Shown here: positions 7,465 through 11,068 of the stretch, in pieces
Position numbering within the stretch: the first letter of the stretch is position 1
Layout of the letters: each line of letters begins with the position of its first letter
Source: Delftia acidovorans NBRC 14950
GTDB taxonomy: Bacteria; Pseudomonadota; Gammaproteobacteria; Burkholderiales; Burkholderiaceae_C
DNA: 32,000 nt
Direction: 5' to 3'
NCBI RefSeq assembly: GCF_001598795.1
Contig: NZ_BCZP01000005.1
Span: forward strand, 90,001-122,000
Position numbers and translations under genes: made by a program
The notes under the pieces: generated by a model
Told to the model about the DNA's origin: nothing
The model's database searches: none
What the model saw: only the letters and a program-made list of their open reading frames with translations

Positions 7465-8067
7465 ATGGACTGGCTTACGTTCATCAGCAAGTTAGTTGAC
7501 TCTTTAGCATGGCCAGTGGCAGGAGTTCTTCTGGGCCTCATCTTCCGCAAGAAGCTACTTGACCTGATTCCATTACTCCGCAGGGTGAAGGCGGGTCCAT
7601 TGGAAGCTGAGTTCGAGATCGCAGCAAAGCAAGTACTGGCAAGCACCGCTGAGCTGACCTCGAAGCAGCAGACACCAGATGTTGCCCAAACGGGAACTCA
7701 ACCGAACGAGGGAGACACAGCAGAGAAATTGCTTACAGCAAGATCTGAACCGACCGCAACCATCATCGAGGGTTGGTCAACATTGGACGGAGAGTTGTAT
7801 AAGCTTGGACGTCAGACTGGAATCGTGGTTGATCCACTTGAAAACCAACTCAAGGTGTATCAGGCCGTCATGGATTCAAACGTAATTCCAGTCGAGACAA
7901 GGCAGTTAGTGAAAAACCTTCGGCTGTTGCGAAATCAAGTCGCTCACGCGAAGGTCATTCCCACGCCCGAATCCGCACAGGACTATTTGGTGTCTATCGA
8001 GCGCGTGGTCGAACTCATACGCAACTACCGGAAAAACCTGCCTGGCTACACTGCCGATGTTCGCTAA
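7465..8067 (+). CDS. DUF4145/HEPN-like protein with N-terminal hydrophobic helix
   Basis: 200-aa ORF with GGAGA 5 nt upstream of the ATG. The N-terminal hydrophobic segment is LAWPVAGVLLGLIF. The C-terminus ...TRQLVKNLRLLRNQVAHAKVIPTPESAQDYLVSIERVVELI matches the DUF4145 pattern as I recall it (..lR..gN..aH....t..ea). It contains R-x4-H (RNQVAH, 7930-7947). Confidence 0.8.
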   Translation: MDWLTFISKLVDSLAWPVAGVLLGLIFRKKLLDLIPLLRRVKAGPLEAEFEIAAKQVLASTAELTSKQQTPDVAQTGTQPNEGDTAEKLLTARSEPTATIIEGWSTLDGELYKLGRQTGIVVDPLENQLKVYQAVMDSNVIPVETRQLVKNLRLLRNQVAHAKVIPTPESAQDYLVSIERVVELIRNYRKNLPGYTADVR

Positions 8068-8372
8068 GCACGGGAGCTCCTATGGCAAGCCACTAGGTGA
8101 GATTCGCCTCAAATGTCGAGCATCCGCAGGAGATACCCGTCACCGACCGACGTTAGTCGCGACCCATGGCTGCCGCCCGAAAGGCCGCGTGCCGGCGCGC
8201 GTATTGCTGCGAATGCAGGTCTCGGCTTCCGAAGATCGCATCTTTGCTTACGAGCTGAAGCGGTCATCGCTCATCTTCCTTCAAGTTGAGTATATATTTG
8301 TTACGTAATTAAGACCTCTCCTGCAAGCTAGCGAACCAAGCCAGCTTCTATGGAAGAAGAACCCATGTCAAC

Positions 8373-9353
8373 GTGATTGAAGTAATGTCCCGACTAATTA
8401 GACCTGCAGATATTCCGGAAACACTTTGGCATGCCAAAACAACGTGTTTGCATCTTGCCCCGACACTTCGGAGAGCTTGGGAGCACTTGCTACTACACGC
8501 CGGACTCGAAGATAAGGCTCGGCTACCGGTTCCTGAGGGAAGAATCGGCGGCTTGAGTAAGGAAGATACGGACGATCATCTGGCATGGCGCTTCAGTGGG
8601 TCGTCGGCGCGGGTTCAGCTCAGTTTTCTCGATCCAGAGGAAAAACTTACTGAGGTGGCAGATGCGTTTGCAAAAGTCTTTTCTGGTGGAACCGTGTTGC
8701 TTGCAGACCTACCCTGCGGCTCAGGTGCTGCAGCATTGACGTTGCTGGCAAACATTGCTGAGTTGCGGCGCCAAGACCGAATCCCACGTAACCCGCTTAA
8801 CGTCAAGATTGTTGGCGGTGAGTTGTCAGAGTTCGCACGAGGCTATGCCGACCTAGCAACAAAACACATCAAAGATGCGTTGGCCGAACAAGCAATCTGG
8901 GTATCCGCTGAGTTTCTTTCCTGGAATGCATTGGATAAATTTTCTACAGCAGAACTAACTAACCGCCTGACCGTGCTTGGCCAGGAATGTTCAGCCCGCC
9001 TAATAGTTCTGGCCAATTTTTCCGGATTTTTACAGCGCGAGGGAAAATGGAAGGAGGCTCTCCCTCAATTTGAAAACTTATTCCTGCATGGCCGAGCTCA
9101 TAACAGTTTTGTACTCTGGATTGAGCCGCAAACAAACGAGGTGCTTGGCTCTGGGGGATTCTTCAGTAGAGCTATTAATTGGTTTAAAAAACTGTTTTCA
9201 GCACATCACACTAAGGACGAGCAAGATGCTCTAGTTGTTGAGAACCTCGGAAAGAGTGCTGCTGACGTCCAACACCCATTAAAGGATCATCAATTCAAAG
9301 TTCAACTAGTAGTTCAGCGCTTCGATTTACCTTTGAACGGAGCGAAGGCATGA
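8373..9353 (+). CDS. class-I SAM-methyltransferase-fold protein with degenerate catalytic motif IV
   Basis: 326-aa ORF; the start is GTG 8373 or ATG 8385. Motif I is VLLADLPCGSGAAAL (8706-8726 = DLPCGSG). An acidic residue ends beta2 (KIVGGELSEF). Motif-III-like is FLSWNALD. At the position where N6-adenine/gamma-class enzymes carry (D/N)PP(Y/F), the sequence is LIVLANFSGF (NFSGF, 9015-9029). The stop overlaps the RT start (ATGA, 9350-9353). Confidence 0.8.
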   Translation: MIEVMSRLIRPADIPETLWHAKTTCLHLAPTLRRAWEHLLLHAGLEDKARLPVPEGRIGGLSKEDTDDHLAWRFSGSSARVQLSFLDPEEKLTEVADAFAKVFSGGTVLLADLPCGSGAAALTLLANIAELRRQDRIPRNPLNVKIVGGELSEFARGYADLATKHIKDALAEQAIWVSAEFLSWNALDKFSTAELTNRLTVLGQECSARLIVLANFSGFLQREGKWKEALPQFENLFLHGRAHNSFVLWIEPQTNEVLGSGGFFSRAINWFKKLFSAHHTKDEQDALVVENLGKSAADVQHPLKDHQFKVQLVVQRFDLPLNGAKA

Positions 9354-11068
9354 GGCCACAGCTACTCGCACTGCGCACAGCCAATGAGTACCGCACACGT
9401 GACATTATGGCCTACCTTGGGTTGCGCTATTACTTTGCCAATCAGTGCGCACGCAGGGATCGCTGGGCTGAAGAGGTGTCTTCTCATCTTGTGATGAGCG
9501 GCAGCAGTGCTTATTTCGAGTCCCTGCATTTCAAGGATATTCGCTCTGACGGCTTGGTTGGCTACCGCAGCATTTTTGTGCCTGGCCCCAATGAGTCTTA
9601 TGCTGAAGCCGCATTGCTCTCCGAGTGCAGTCGACACGCAGTATTTCGTTCACCCAGCTTTGTCTTTAGCTATCGTTTGGCAGAGGGCGAGGAAACTCAA
9701 GGGGTCTACAAGCCTTACTTCATGGGGTTACAAGAGCGGCAAAAAAAAATTGCCGATGCATGCAAAGCAGGCGCAGGTCAGGTTGTGCGCTATACCGATA
9801 TTAAACGATTTTATCCGAATATATCCTATGAGCTGGCAATTGGTGCTTGGTTGAAGGCATGCGATGCAACTAAAATAGCCACCTTGTACCGTGATTTAGG
9901 TATAAAACTTTTAACTCAACACGCACAGGTATGTCAGACAGCCGCTCATGGCAAGGGATTGCTTACCGGCCCCATGTTCAGTCACCTAATTGCCAACCTT
10001 GTGTTACGCGATGTTGACGAAGCAATGTCTGCGGCCTTCCCAATGCGTTACTTCCGCTATGTGGATGACGTAGTCCTGGTAGGATCAGCAGCAGAGGTTT
10101 CCACAGGCCGGTCGCAATTGGCAGCGATGTTGACAGAGTTAGGGCTTGAATTGCATGAGAACGGCACGGGTAAGGACTTTGAGCTCGCTTCTGATGATTG
10201 GCTGCATGGAGAGGGGGATTTCAGCGGAAAAGACTCATACAACTGGATGCTCTTTGTTCATGACATTAAGCAGTTCCTAATTTCACAGCCATCGTCTCGT
10301 GCCAACCTAGTTAATAGATTTGCTGCAGAGGGATTCAGGATACCGTTGCTGGATTACAGCATGCAAGTCAGTGATGCGAGGTATCAAGAACGATTTTTTA
10401 ACCAATTGCGCCGCTATCCTTGGTTATTAAAGAAAATATTCCGACGGGCTACTCCAAACACGCTTTTGATTTCTGCACAAAACCTTCGGGCTGAATTTTC
10501 AAATAGTTTGTTTAAAATCCTGGACGCCGGCCATGATTTGGATGGTTACGCTCGTAAGAGGGTCGTTACTAAGATTCGTTATTTCGCCGGCAGACTACTC
10601 TACCTAGCCAAAACTGAAGATTTGGCAAAAATTGCAGAGCGGCTGCGGCGATATCCAGAGCTCGCCATGCTTGCGGAAATACTCCACGCAGTCGGCACAC
10701 GAGACGTCACGCAACTTTTGCGATTGGGTAATAATGCGGCCCAATCGGCTGCGCAGCCCCTAAAAATTACTCCCGGCGTAATCACTTGCCAAATCGAATC
10801 TTGGGGTTCCGCAGAACGTAAGAGCTTGGCCATTTTGCGAGCAAACGGTATCAGCGTTGCCGGTCCGGCCGACGATGAACTCAATCGCTTCGCTTTATGG
10901 AACGAGCGCGGGCATGAGCTAATGAGTGCAGGCGATCCCTTCATCAAGGAAATAGCCTGCCTGCACGGGATTTCAGAACACCCCCGCCATCCCGGGATTC
11001 TTGAGACGGCACTGGATCACGGTGAGGAACTTGCCTTCGATGCGACGACGCCGATTGATACCTACTGA
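9350..11068 (+). CDS. reverse transcriptase (stand-alone, defence-type/UG-Abi-like) with ~300-aa helical C-terminal extension
   Basis: 572-aa ORF with GGAG 8 nt upstream. RT motifs:
- 1/2: YRSIFVPGPNESYAEAALL;
- A: VVRYTDIKRFYPNISYE (D150, 9797-9799);
- B: GLLTGPMFSHLIANLVLRDVD (9956-10000);
- C: FRYVDDVVLVG (YVDD, 10058-10069);
- D-like: LGLELHENGTGK.

No maturase/En, nitrilase or primase-like domain is evident. Confidence 0.9.
   Translation: MRPQLLALRTANEYRTRDIMAYLGLRYYFANQCARRDRWAEEVSSHLVMSGSSAYFESLHFKDIRSDGLVGYRSIFVPGPNESYAEAALLSECSRHAVFRSPSFVFSYRLAEGEETQGVYKPYFMGLQERQKKIADACKAGAGQVVRYTDIKRFYPNISYELAIGAWLKACDATKIATLYRDLGIKLLTQHAQVCQTAAHGKGLLTGPMFSHLIANLVLRDVDEAMSAAFPMRYFRYVDDVVLVGSAAEVSTGRSQLAAMLTELGLELHENGTGKDFELASDDWLHGEGDFSGKDSYNWMLFVHDIKQFLISQPSSRANLVNRFAAEGFRIPLLDYSMQVSDARYQERFFNQLRRYPWLLKKIFRRATPNTLLISAQNLRAEFSNSLFKILDAGHDLDGYARKRVVTKIRYFAGRLLYLAKTEDLAKIAERLRRYPELAMLAEILHAVGTRDVTQLLRLGNNAAQSAAQPLKITPGVITCQIESWGSAERKSLAILRANGISVAGPADDELNRFALWNERGHELMSAGDPFIKEIACLHGISEHPRHPGILETALDHGEELAFDATTPIDTY

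Follow-up and report, generated by a model that had tools for sequence, protein, structure and literature searches.

The window analysed here, a 32,000-nt stretch of DNA from Delftia acidovorans NBRC 14950 in which position 1 is the first letter, contains a compact pair of genes coding for a reverse transcriptase (RT) and for a protein with the fold of class I S-adenosylmethionine (SAM)-dependent methyltransferases (MTases). An earlier note on this DNA had described three co-directional genes at this place as a candidate undescribed RT-based defense system, and the listing of open reading frames (ORFs) has them exactly where it put them, all on the forward (+) strand: gene 1 at 7465–8067 (200 amino acids), gene 2 at 8373–9353 (326 amino acids, from a GTG codon) and gene 3, the RT gene, at 9350–11068 (572 amino acids). 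The region is indeed AT-rich. The G+C counts made by hand for three 60-nt lines (19/60, 27/60 and 40/60) were all exact on recounting, and in a sliding profile the G+C content falls to its minimum for the window, about 0.48–0.50, at 8500–11000 and is 0.65–0.72 downstream. DNA homology between the window and the locus of its nearest relative, from a Rhodoferax (L001, 88% identity), covers positions 8206–11145 only and has sharp edges. In two other loci (L002 and L003), DNA similarity to the window stops at most a few bases from the gene 2 start on one side and no more than 6 nt from the RT stop codon on the other. The cassette is 2.9 kb long and clearly bounded. It comprises a 5' non-coding leader (8206–8384, +), gene 2, the RT gene and a 3' non-coding tail (11069–11145, +) that ends where the homology to L001 stops. 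Its G+C content is 49.8%, compared to 59.3% for positions 1–7464 and 66.0% for positions 11146–32000. Because of this difference from the 66% downstream, and because of the sharp-edged homology block, we consider it probable that 8206–11145 is a horizontally acquired cassette of two genes, in which a SAM-MTase-fold gene is coupled to an intact RT gene, located in a variable island. The stepwise G+C content (59%, 50%, 66%) and the accessory-type genes around the cassette suggest that the island is a mosaic, composite acquisition.

The gene 3 protein matches the PADLOC profile RT_UG36 over its full length (E = 6.3 × 10−207, 687 bits, profile positions 2–555 of 557), and by profile scores it is a member of group UG36 of the UG/Abi (DRT-type) family of RTs. 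The second-best PADLOC profile, RT_UG35, scores 60 bits, the PADLOC profile for AbiK matches the palm only (E = 8.5 × 10−9), Pfam RVT_1 is under its cut-off, and with none of the NCBIfam models (Drt2, Drt3a, Drt4, retron and group II RTs) does the score come near the cut-off. That this is a stand-alone UG/Abi RT with complete catalytic motifs, as had been read from the sequence, is borne out: the palm contains YTDIKRFY (including D150), LTGPMFSHL and YVDD (from residue 237; 10058–10069), and an alignment of 19 diverse sequences, that of the window among them, shows no variation at D150, Y237, V238, D239 and D240.

UG36 was defined as a group of UG/Abi RTs by Mestre et al. (2022, Nucleic Acids Research; PMC9226505). 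In the parts of that survey that treat UG36, the RT is accompanied by a separate gene with a methylase domain (clusters 169/2186), an arrangement that recalls UG25 and UG35, where the RT carries the methylase as an N-terminal fusion, and a defensive function is predicted from manual inspection of single loci. UG36 is outside the groups for which those parts give experimental tests. We liken gene 2 to the published methylase partner by its domain type and position. With a PADLOC model of its own, and with both its pairing with a methylase gene and its prediction as a defense system published in 2022 (PMC9226505), the system cannot be called undescribed. Profile searches place the RT inside a known type, UG36, that has the same partner as far as the RT–MTase pair is concerned, and this pair is an already described but uncharacterised family.

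To define the extent of the system we used 48 loci with homologs of the RT (35–86% identity), from Beta-, Gamma-, Alpha- and Deltaproteobacteria, Cyanobacteria, Verrucomicrobiota, Acidobacteriota, Planctomycetota and Bacteroidota, and screened all of their stop-to-stop ORFs by phmmer. A homolog of gene 2 lies immediately 5' of the RT gene in 45 of these 48 loci. The three exceptions are two loci that are cut by the end of a contig, and one (L048) in which the RT match is itself truncated. In the window, gene 2 and the RT gene overlap by the four bases ATGA (9350–9353, +), which hold the stop codon of one and the start codon of the other. This had been taken as a sign of translational coupling, and the same −4 overlap (ATGA or GTGA) is kept across phyla, in most of the 46 loci examined. 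The two families are alike in their compact size. In one metagenome-assembled genome of Methylococcales (L023), gene 2 and RT_UG36 occupy a single in-frame ORF of 902 amino acids (6023–8731); a frameshift in the assembly is a possible origin of this fusion. A protein of 663 amino acids (P0419) that appeared to be a second fusion was rejected as a deletion chimera, in which residues 1–245 of gene 2 are joined to the RT from about residue 150. At another locus (L056, 5001–6675) gene 2 is followed by an insertion sequence (rve) gene in place of the RT. All-against-all clustering of the neighboring genes yielded no universal third gene, only clade-specific accessories and restriction-modification (R-M) genes. 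From these sequence comparisons we conclude that gene 2 and the RT form an obligate, translationally coupled pair that is conserved across phyla, and that the unit consists of two genes.

The expectation that the RT would keep both of its neighbors in other genomes therefore holds for gene 2 but not for gene 1, homologs of which were found in none of the 48 loci. In six further loci centered on gene 2 (L055–L060), there is nothing of the size or kind of gene 1 among the called genes beside the pair. Gene 1 is also outside the DNA block that the window has in common with L001. It has 185 homologs and belongs to a family of proteins of approximately 200 amino acids in the Burkholderiales, whose neighbors in four genomes are a ketopantoate-reductase-like gene, an Mrr/NA-iREase nuclease and unknown genes, with neither an RT nor a gene 2 among them. 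The loci of this family that we collected (L049–L054) have unrelated contexts, in one case adjoining an Mrr/NA-iREase nuclease. We therefore rejected gene 1 as a component of the system, and with it the three-gene cassette of the earlier note; gene 1 is an unrelated bystander.

What had been proposed for gene 1 is that it codes for a HEPN-like membrane protein acting as the effector of the RT–MTase pair. Several features of the gene speak for this: it is co-directional with gene 2, lies 305 nt 5' of it and has a similarly low G+C content (0.514); the R-x4-H motif is real (RNQVAH at residue 156, with LRNxVAH at 7930–7947), and R156-N-x-V-A-H161 is invariant in 22 sequences of the family; the N-terminus is hydrophobic and conserved in the family, with a maximum Kyte-Doolittle-19 value of 1.63 at residue 9; and HEPN or transmembrane partners are used by other UG/Abi systems, according to Mestre et al. 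(PMC9226505). The match to Pfam HEPN_Swt1 is weak (E = 0.0019, 18.9 bits, below the cut-off of 27.5), and a few homologs carry a precomputed PF18731 annotation. However, with gene 1 missing from all 48 RT loci and the six further loci, with the block shared with L001 beginning only past it at 8206, and with its homologs in four genomes among unrelated neighbors and away from any RT, this three-gene model is very improbable. It is refuted as a property of the family, and a local, recently evolved link of gene 1 to the pair in this genome is possible. Gene 1 may be a stand-alone toxin or defense gene in its own right.

Because most homologs of gene 2 begin at the methionine of MSRLI, which corresponds to ATG 8385, and are 322 amino acids long, and because in L002 an in-frame TAA codon is situated just 5' of this methionine, gene 2 probably starts at ATG 8385 (8385–9353, +; 322 amino acids) rather than at GTG 8373, where the ORF opens. 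The family is real beyond chance but stands apart in sequence: gene 2 has 254 word-indexed homologs, and an exhaustive search of 1.84 billion representatives with a hidden Markov model found only 392 clusters at 50% identity, nearly all of them stand-alone proteins of 300–330 amino acids. The two motifs reported for gene 2 are present, DLPCGSG at residue 112 and NFSGF at residue 215. We aligned 26 diverse members of the family (46–89% identity to the window protein) and found that the invariant residues include D112, P114, G116, G118 and A119 in DLPCGSGAA (8706–8732), G149 and E150 in GGE (8814–8822), W184, N215, S217, F219 and L220 in NFSGFL (NFSGF at 9015–9029), W249, E251 and P252, and H301 and P302. 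The AlphaFold2 (AF2) model of the protein has a predicted local distance difference test score (pLDDT) of 92.3 and a predicted TM-score (pTM) of 0.92, and contains a seven-stranded alternating beta/alpha core with strands at residues 106–112, 142–150, 175–183, 208–214, 245–252, 292–300 and 307–318. The invariant residues occupy the positions that are canonical for class I MTases: motif I follows strand 1, E150 closes strand 2, and W184 and N215 come just past strands 3 and 4, respectively. In Foldseek searches of the PDB the model matches MrsA/SgvM, Dot1L/DOT1A, MnmM, the N-domain of MnmC, BCDIN3D and GNMT with probabilities of about 1, and also GRAS domains, with TM-scores of only 0.3–0.45 that make these coarse structural analogies. 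As modelled, gene 2 has a class I SAM-MTase fold with the conserved topology of a predicted SAM pocket.

Gene 2 had been called a degenerate SAM-MTase. The fold stands, and the catalytic (D/N)PP(Y/F) motif is indeed absent, but the protein is not decayed: all 26 members keep motif I, the acidic loop and NFSxF unchanged. The invariance of NFSxF across phyla speaks for a functional site that is non-canonical but conserved, and against decay. Such conservation, which extends to the asparagine of motif IV, could also be expected if gene 2 were a conventional, active DNA or RNA MTase that marks self, with the RT as the effector against unmarked invaders in the manner of an R-M system. By eye, motif I (D-x-P-C-G-S-G-A) and the sequence VLAN... 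resemble those of gamma-class N6-adenine MTases, a resemblance that we presume to be a lead only, and hhalign did not confirm it. We rejected this assignment, because hhalign against four type IIG N6-MTases gave a probability of 2.8%, Pfam MTase models match 0 of the 26 members even at E ≤ 1, and no sequence relatives of gene 2 were found in the PDB. A profile for type I MTases is matched by one of the 26 members only (E = 0.004). Motif IV reads N-F-S-x-F in 26 of 26, and not (D/N/S)PP(Y/F/W) as in N6-adenine and N4-cytosine amino-MTases. Moreover, the best matches by fold are MTases of small molecules, proteins and RNA, with DNA amino-MTases far down the list (3ufb is at rank 38), and there is no evident target-recognition domain. 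We consider a self-marking MTase to be rather unlikely.

A different relationship emerged from the RT profiles. The N-terminal domain of the RT_UG35 profile is matched by 24 of the 26 gene 2 family members, with a best E-value of 3.4 × 10−13. At the level of sequence profiles, this supports homology of the gene 2 family with that domain of the UG35 fusion RTs, its one clear relative outside the family, and it backs the suggestion of common ancestry made by Mestre et al.

The leader of the cassette is probably a promoter and 5' untranslated region. It contains a conserved A/T-rich block (approximately 8286–8316) and a short inverted repeat (approximately 8326–8360) just 5' of gene 2, and a scan of the region for sigma-70 promoters found nothing. 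Its last 60 nt or so are 55–82% identical in relatives, and further 5' the similarity decays to background. The inverted repeat, in the region 8326–8384, reads approximately AGAAGCTTG...CAAGCTTCT in relatives. It is followed by a short upstream ORF (uORF, with its ATG at about 8345), which in the window stops early at a TGA codon; in L001 the uORF ends in TAATG, overlapping the start of gene 2, and in L055 it is in frame and forms an N-terminal extension of 12 amino acids. The inverted repeat and uORF may be a translational control element, and covariation in the repeat is weak.

Several characterised DRTs require a non-coding RNA (ncRNA) adjoining the RT gene; DRT2, DRT3, DRT9 and DRT10 have a dedicated one. 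By analogy, the UG36 RT could reverse-transcribe a dedicated RNA, for example the leader or part of its mRNA; the cDNA would be repetitive or toxic, and gene 2 would modify either it or the RNA. The hairpin and the conservation of about 60 nt 5' of gene 2 among close relatives fit such a scheme, as does the presence of DRT2 among the top structural matches of the RT. However, there are no Rfam matches in 7000–12000 (no intron, retron or diversity-generating retroelement (DGR) RNA), folding of 8206–8390 shows no excess stability over shuffled sequences (minimum free energy z = −0.02), and the hairpin has minimal covariation by RNAalifold. Comparison by blastn of the flanks of distant loci found no sequence common to their upstream or downstream sides. 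Identity in the flanks drops to the level of shuffled background beyond about 60 nt upstream and right past the stop codon, at a divergence where the coding regions are still 71–78% identical, and in several loci other genes directly abut the pair. These searches found no conserved flanking ncRNA of the kind that distinguishes DRT2, DRT3, DRT9 and DRT10, and an RNA-templated mechanism of this kind is doubtful.

We examined the genomic surroundings of the pair in a census of the 87 nearest neighbors at 47 loci, the counts from which have no background control and are to be read qualitatively. R-M genes recur and include type I, IIG and III systems: HsdS (three), HsdR (two), ResIII (four), type IIG/DrmMI (three) and N6_N4 MTases (two). 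Other defense-related neighbors are BrxL and the PADLOC candidates mad2 (six) and PDC-S48 (four). Large Eco57I/MmeI-type enzymes are found near the pair in L010, L017, L019 and L023. In the loci L059 and L060, the pair stands beside Gabija (an OLD-TOPRIM ATPase and a UvrD-like helicase), AbiEi and a KAP NTPase, and in L057 and L058 beside SIR2 and an SMC-like ATPase. With R-M, BREX, DISARM, Gabija, AbiE and SIR2 genes as neighbors in other genomes, the defensive role that had been proposed is plausible, and we think it quite likely that the UG36 pair would act as an anti-phage system.

The alternative is that the pair has no part in defense and instead serves a housekeeping or mobile-element function (as in group II introns, retrons or DGRs) or modifies nucleic acids in a process unrelated to phages. 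Consistent with this, in L055 and L001 the pair is situated among metabolic genes, and the prediction of defense for UG36 in the relevant part of Mestre et al. comes only from manual inspection of loci. However, no intron, retron or DGR RNA was detected, the RT scores far under the cut-offs of the NCBIfam models (group II, retron and named DRTs), genes for a maturase, an endonuclease or accessory variability are lacking, the distribution of the pair is patchy and its G+C content foreign, and R-M, BREX, DISARM, Gabija and AbiE neighbors recur. A non-defensive function is therefore unlikely.

Four cyanobacterial loci have an additional gene, for a 3'-5' exonuclease of the RNase T/DEDDh type (PF00929, E = 3.5 × 10−15; PADLOC DEDDh), which begins 12–27 nt past the RT stop codon (L007, 8755–9432; L008, 8745–9422; L009, 8773–9483; L012, 8770–9474). 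The DNA products of DRT4, DRT6 and DRT10 are restrained by the host exonuclease SbcB (for DRT4 and DRT6, PMC12783706), and because of this the accessory exonuclease fits a UG36 RT that makes a 3'-ended single-stranded DNA (ssDNA) needing restraint. By this analogy the exonuclease, a clade-specific accessory, may be a natural brake on the UG36 product.

The structure predicted for the RT points to the same group of systems. Its AF2 model (pLDDT 87.9) consists of an N-terminal helical region, a palm and an all-helical C-terminal domain of about 280 amino acids. Among structures aligned over most of its length by Foldseek, the best match is DRT6 (9wy8, E = 1.7 × 10−9, query TM-score (TMq) 0.45), and others are DRT4/UG15 (9vdo, E = 2.3 × 10−8; 9l9s), DRT2, G2L4, AbiK, Abi-P2 and AbiA. 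DRT6 is also the best match by sequence in the PDB (E = 1 × 10−7, palm only). DRT4 and DRT6 are Class 1 enzymes that are oligomeric (DRT4 is a hexamer) and synthesise ssDNA from a protein primer without a template; DRT4 uses Tyr125 as primer, with D240 and D241 as its catalytic residues (PMC12783706). Their product is normally removed by a host 3'-5' exonuclease, and toxicity results when a protein of the phage resembling single-stranded DNA-binding protein shields it (PMC12783706). Before the palm, the UG36 RT has a loop at residues ~100–126 (nt ~9647–9727) that is modelled with pLDDT below 60 and contains the invariant residues S107, Y108, G118, Y123, F124 and G126. Y123 is 116 residues before D239, and DRT4 Tyr125 is 115 before D240, so by analogy Y123 is perhaps a candidate protein-priming site.

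These likenesses allow a working scheme to be drawn. The gene 2 protein and the RT might form a complex, and the RT would then, tentatively, make DNA without a dedicated flanking ncRNA. The most plausible product would be ssDNA that is started on a protein and made with no template, like that of DRT4 and DRT6, with the invariant Y123 perhaps serving as primer. The gene 2 protein, putatively SAM-binding, would gate or modify its synthesis or the product, and accumulation of the DNA product on infection would lead to abortive infection. We regard it as possible, with somewhat less than an even chance, that the RT works like DRT4 and DRT6 in this way, with Y123 as candidate primer and a product that is toxic when it accumulates. 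Going by its modelled fold, gene 2 may bind SAM, and it would then either modify a primer, nucleotide or product or gate the polymerase. A more speculative version, which we consider doubtful, is that in UG36 a non-canonical kind of DNA synthesis is linked to SAM chemistry, the MTase-fold subunit not being a self-marking enzyme. This subunit would either methylate the primer residue of the RT, nucleotides or nascent DNA, so that the DNA product is a modified one, or act as a switch that depends on SAM occupancy. In the switch version, depletion of SAM by a phage SAM lyase would release a protein-primed, template-independent polymerase like that of DRT4 and DRT6.

A number of points weigh against this scheme, or against the defensive role behind it. 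Our searches of the literature found no experiment on UG36 and no later characterisation or renaming of the group, so that defense is a prediction, and in its treatment of UG36 the survey of Mestre et al. leaves the group unclassified and gives no alpha-Rep evidence for it (PMC9226505); a C-terminal domain of alpha-helical repeats (alpha-Rep) is a mark of Class 1 enzymes like DRT4, DRT6 and AbiK. Many of the neighbors in our uncontrolled census are ordinary metabolic genes. The structural matches of the RT to DRT6, DRT4, AbiK and Abi-P2 have low TM-scores (0.33–0.45) and are coarse analogies, as are those of gene 2, whose assignment as an MTase draws no help from Pfam. For the proposed equivalence of Y123 and Tyr125 of DRT4, both PDB profile alignments and single-sequence alignments cover the palm only and stop at about residue 138. 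Lastly, an RNA template could be located inside the coding region or in the conserved 60-nt leader, or could come from the phage or the host.

UG36 and its methylase partner were already known from published work and from PADLOC, and the additions made here are modest: the boundary of the two-gene unit, the likely start codon, the conservation of the overlap, the invariant NFSxF site, a predicted fold like that of DRT4 and DRT6 with a helical C-terminal domain, the finding of no conserved flanking ncRNA, the exonuclease accessory gene of cyanobacteria, and a natural full fusion (L023). The DNA-writing chemistry of DRTs is varied, ranging over de novo genes, homopolymers, protein-templated repeats and random ssDNA (PMC13213688). 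UG36, UG25 and UG35 belong to a small number of groups in which an RT is linked to an MTase-like module, and UG36 has so far only been catalogued. If either version of the SAM coupling were true, UG36 would be the first DRT in which the writing of DNA is controlled or decorated by an MTase-like partner; if the switch were true, UG36 would be a back-up guard for the SAM-dependent R-M, BREX and DISARM systems that often adjoin it. The window offers an intact, compact and delimited example of UG36 for cloning, and so an entry point to an unstudied DRT family. The comparative data indicate that two genes should suffice, leaving out gene 1, with no ncRNA to supply and with ATG 8385 as the probable start. 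The candidate key residues of gene 2 are D112/G116/G118, E150 and N215/F219; those of the RT are Y123 and D239/D240.

Other genes of the window lie on both sides of the cassette. Directly 5' of gene 1 is a giant ORF of 1413 amino acids (3132–7373, +; 59.7% G+C), the product of which has a clear PIN domain of the 'TPR-GreAB-C-PIN system' (PF20698, E = 9 × 10−19), TPR-like repeats, a weak Mrr-type restriction-endonuclease N-terminus (E = 0.008) and a weak GreA/GreB C-terminal-like segment. It has no PADLOC matches, and we rejected it as a partner of the RT because it occurs in 0 of the 48 loci. It is probably a separate predicted conflict or defense gene of the same island. Downstream of the cassette is a gene for a Bro-N domain protein (11532–12485, +; E = 1.4 × 10−14), likewise rejected as a partner (0 of 48 loci), and then one for a Tsi6 type VI secretion immunity protein (12791–13075, −; E = 1.8 × 10−33). 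Near the left end of the window are genes for an N-acetylmuramoyl-L-alanine amidase (Amidase_2; 227–1105, −; E = 3.5 × 10−13) and a DUF1353 protein (1176–1868, −; E = 7 × 10−24).

Among known systems, the pair in the window agrees with UG36 as represented by PADLOC RT_UG36 in its full-length profile match, its separate gene with a methylase domain and its defense-island-like neighbors, and nothing that defines the group differs. Also close to it are the methylase–RT fusions of UG35 and UG25, which belong to Class 1 of the UG/Abi RTs. The gene 2 family is homologous, by profile, to the N-terminal domain of UG35, which is also the second-best PADLOC profile for the RT, and the fusion in L023 has the same architecture. 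Unlike these fusions, the window has separate, overlapping genes, the score to UG35 is only 60 bits, and neither the UvrD-like helicase that partners UG35 nor the DUF1848 gene that partners UG25 is conserved near UG36 pairs. AbiK, Abi-P2 and AbiA share with UG36, as modelled, the UG/Abi fold with a helical C-terminal region and a defense context, but sequence similarity to them is low, UG36 does not have the HEPN fusion of AbiA, and the partner gene is different. DRT4 (UG15) and DRT6 (UG12) are each encoded by a single gene and are hexameric synthases of ssDNA that are protein-primed and template-independent. Of all structures aligned over the full length of the UG36 RT they match it best (TM 0.40–0.45), and they have in common with it an RT joined to a C-terminal domain that is helical (in UG36, as modelled), no associated ncRNA as far as we detected for UG36, and, as a candidate, an invariant tyrosine about 116 residues before the catalytic DD. 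UG36 differs from them in that the PADLOC and NCBIfam scores of its RT are far below family level, and in that it has a second protein, with an MTase fold.

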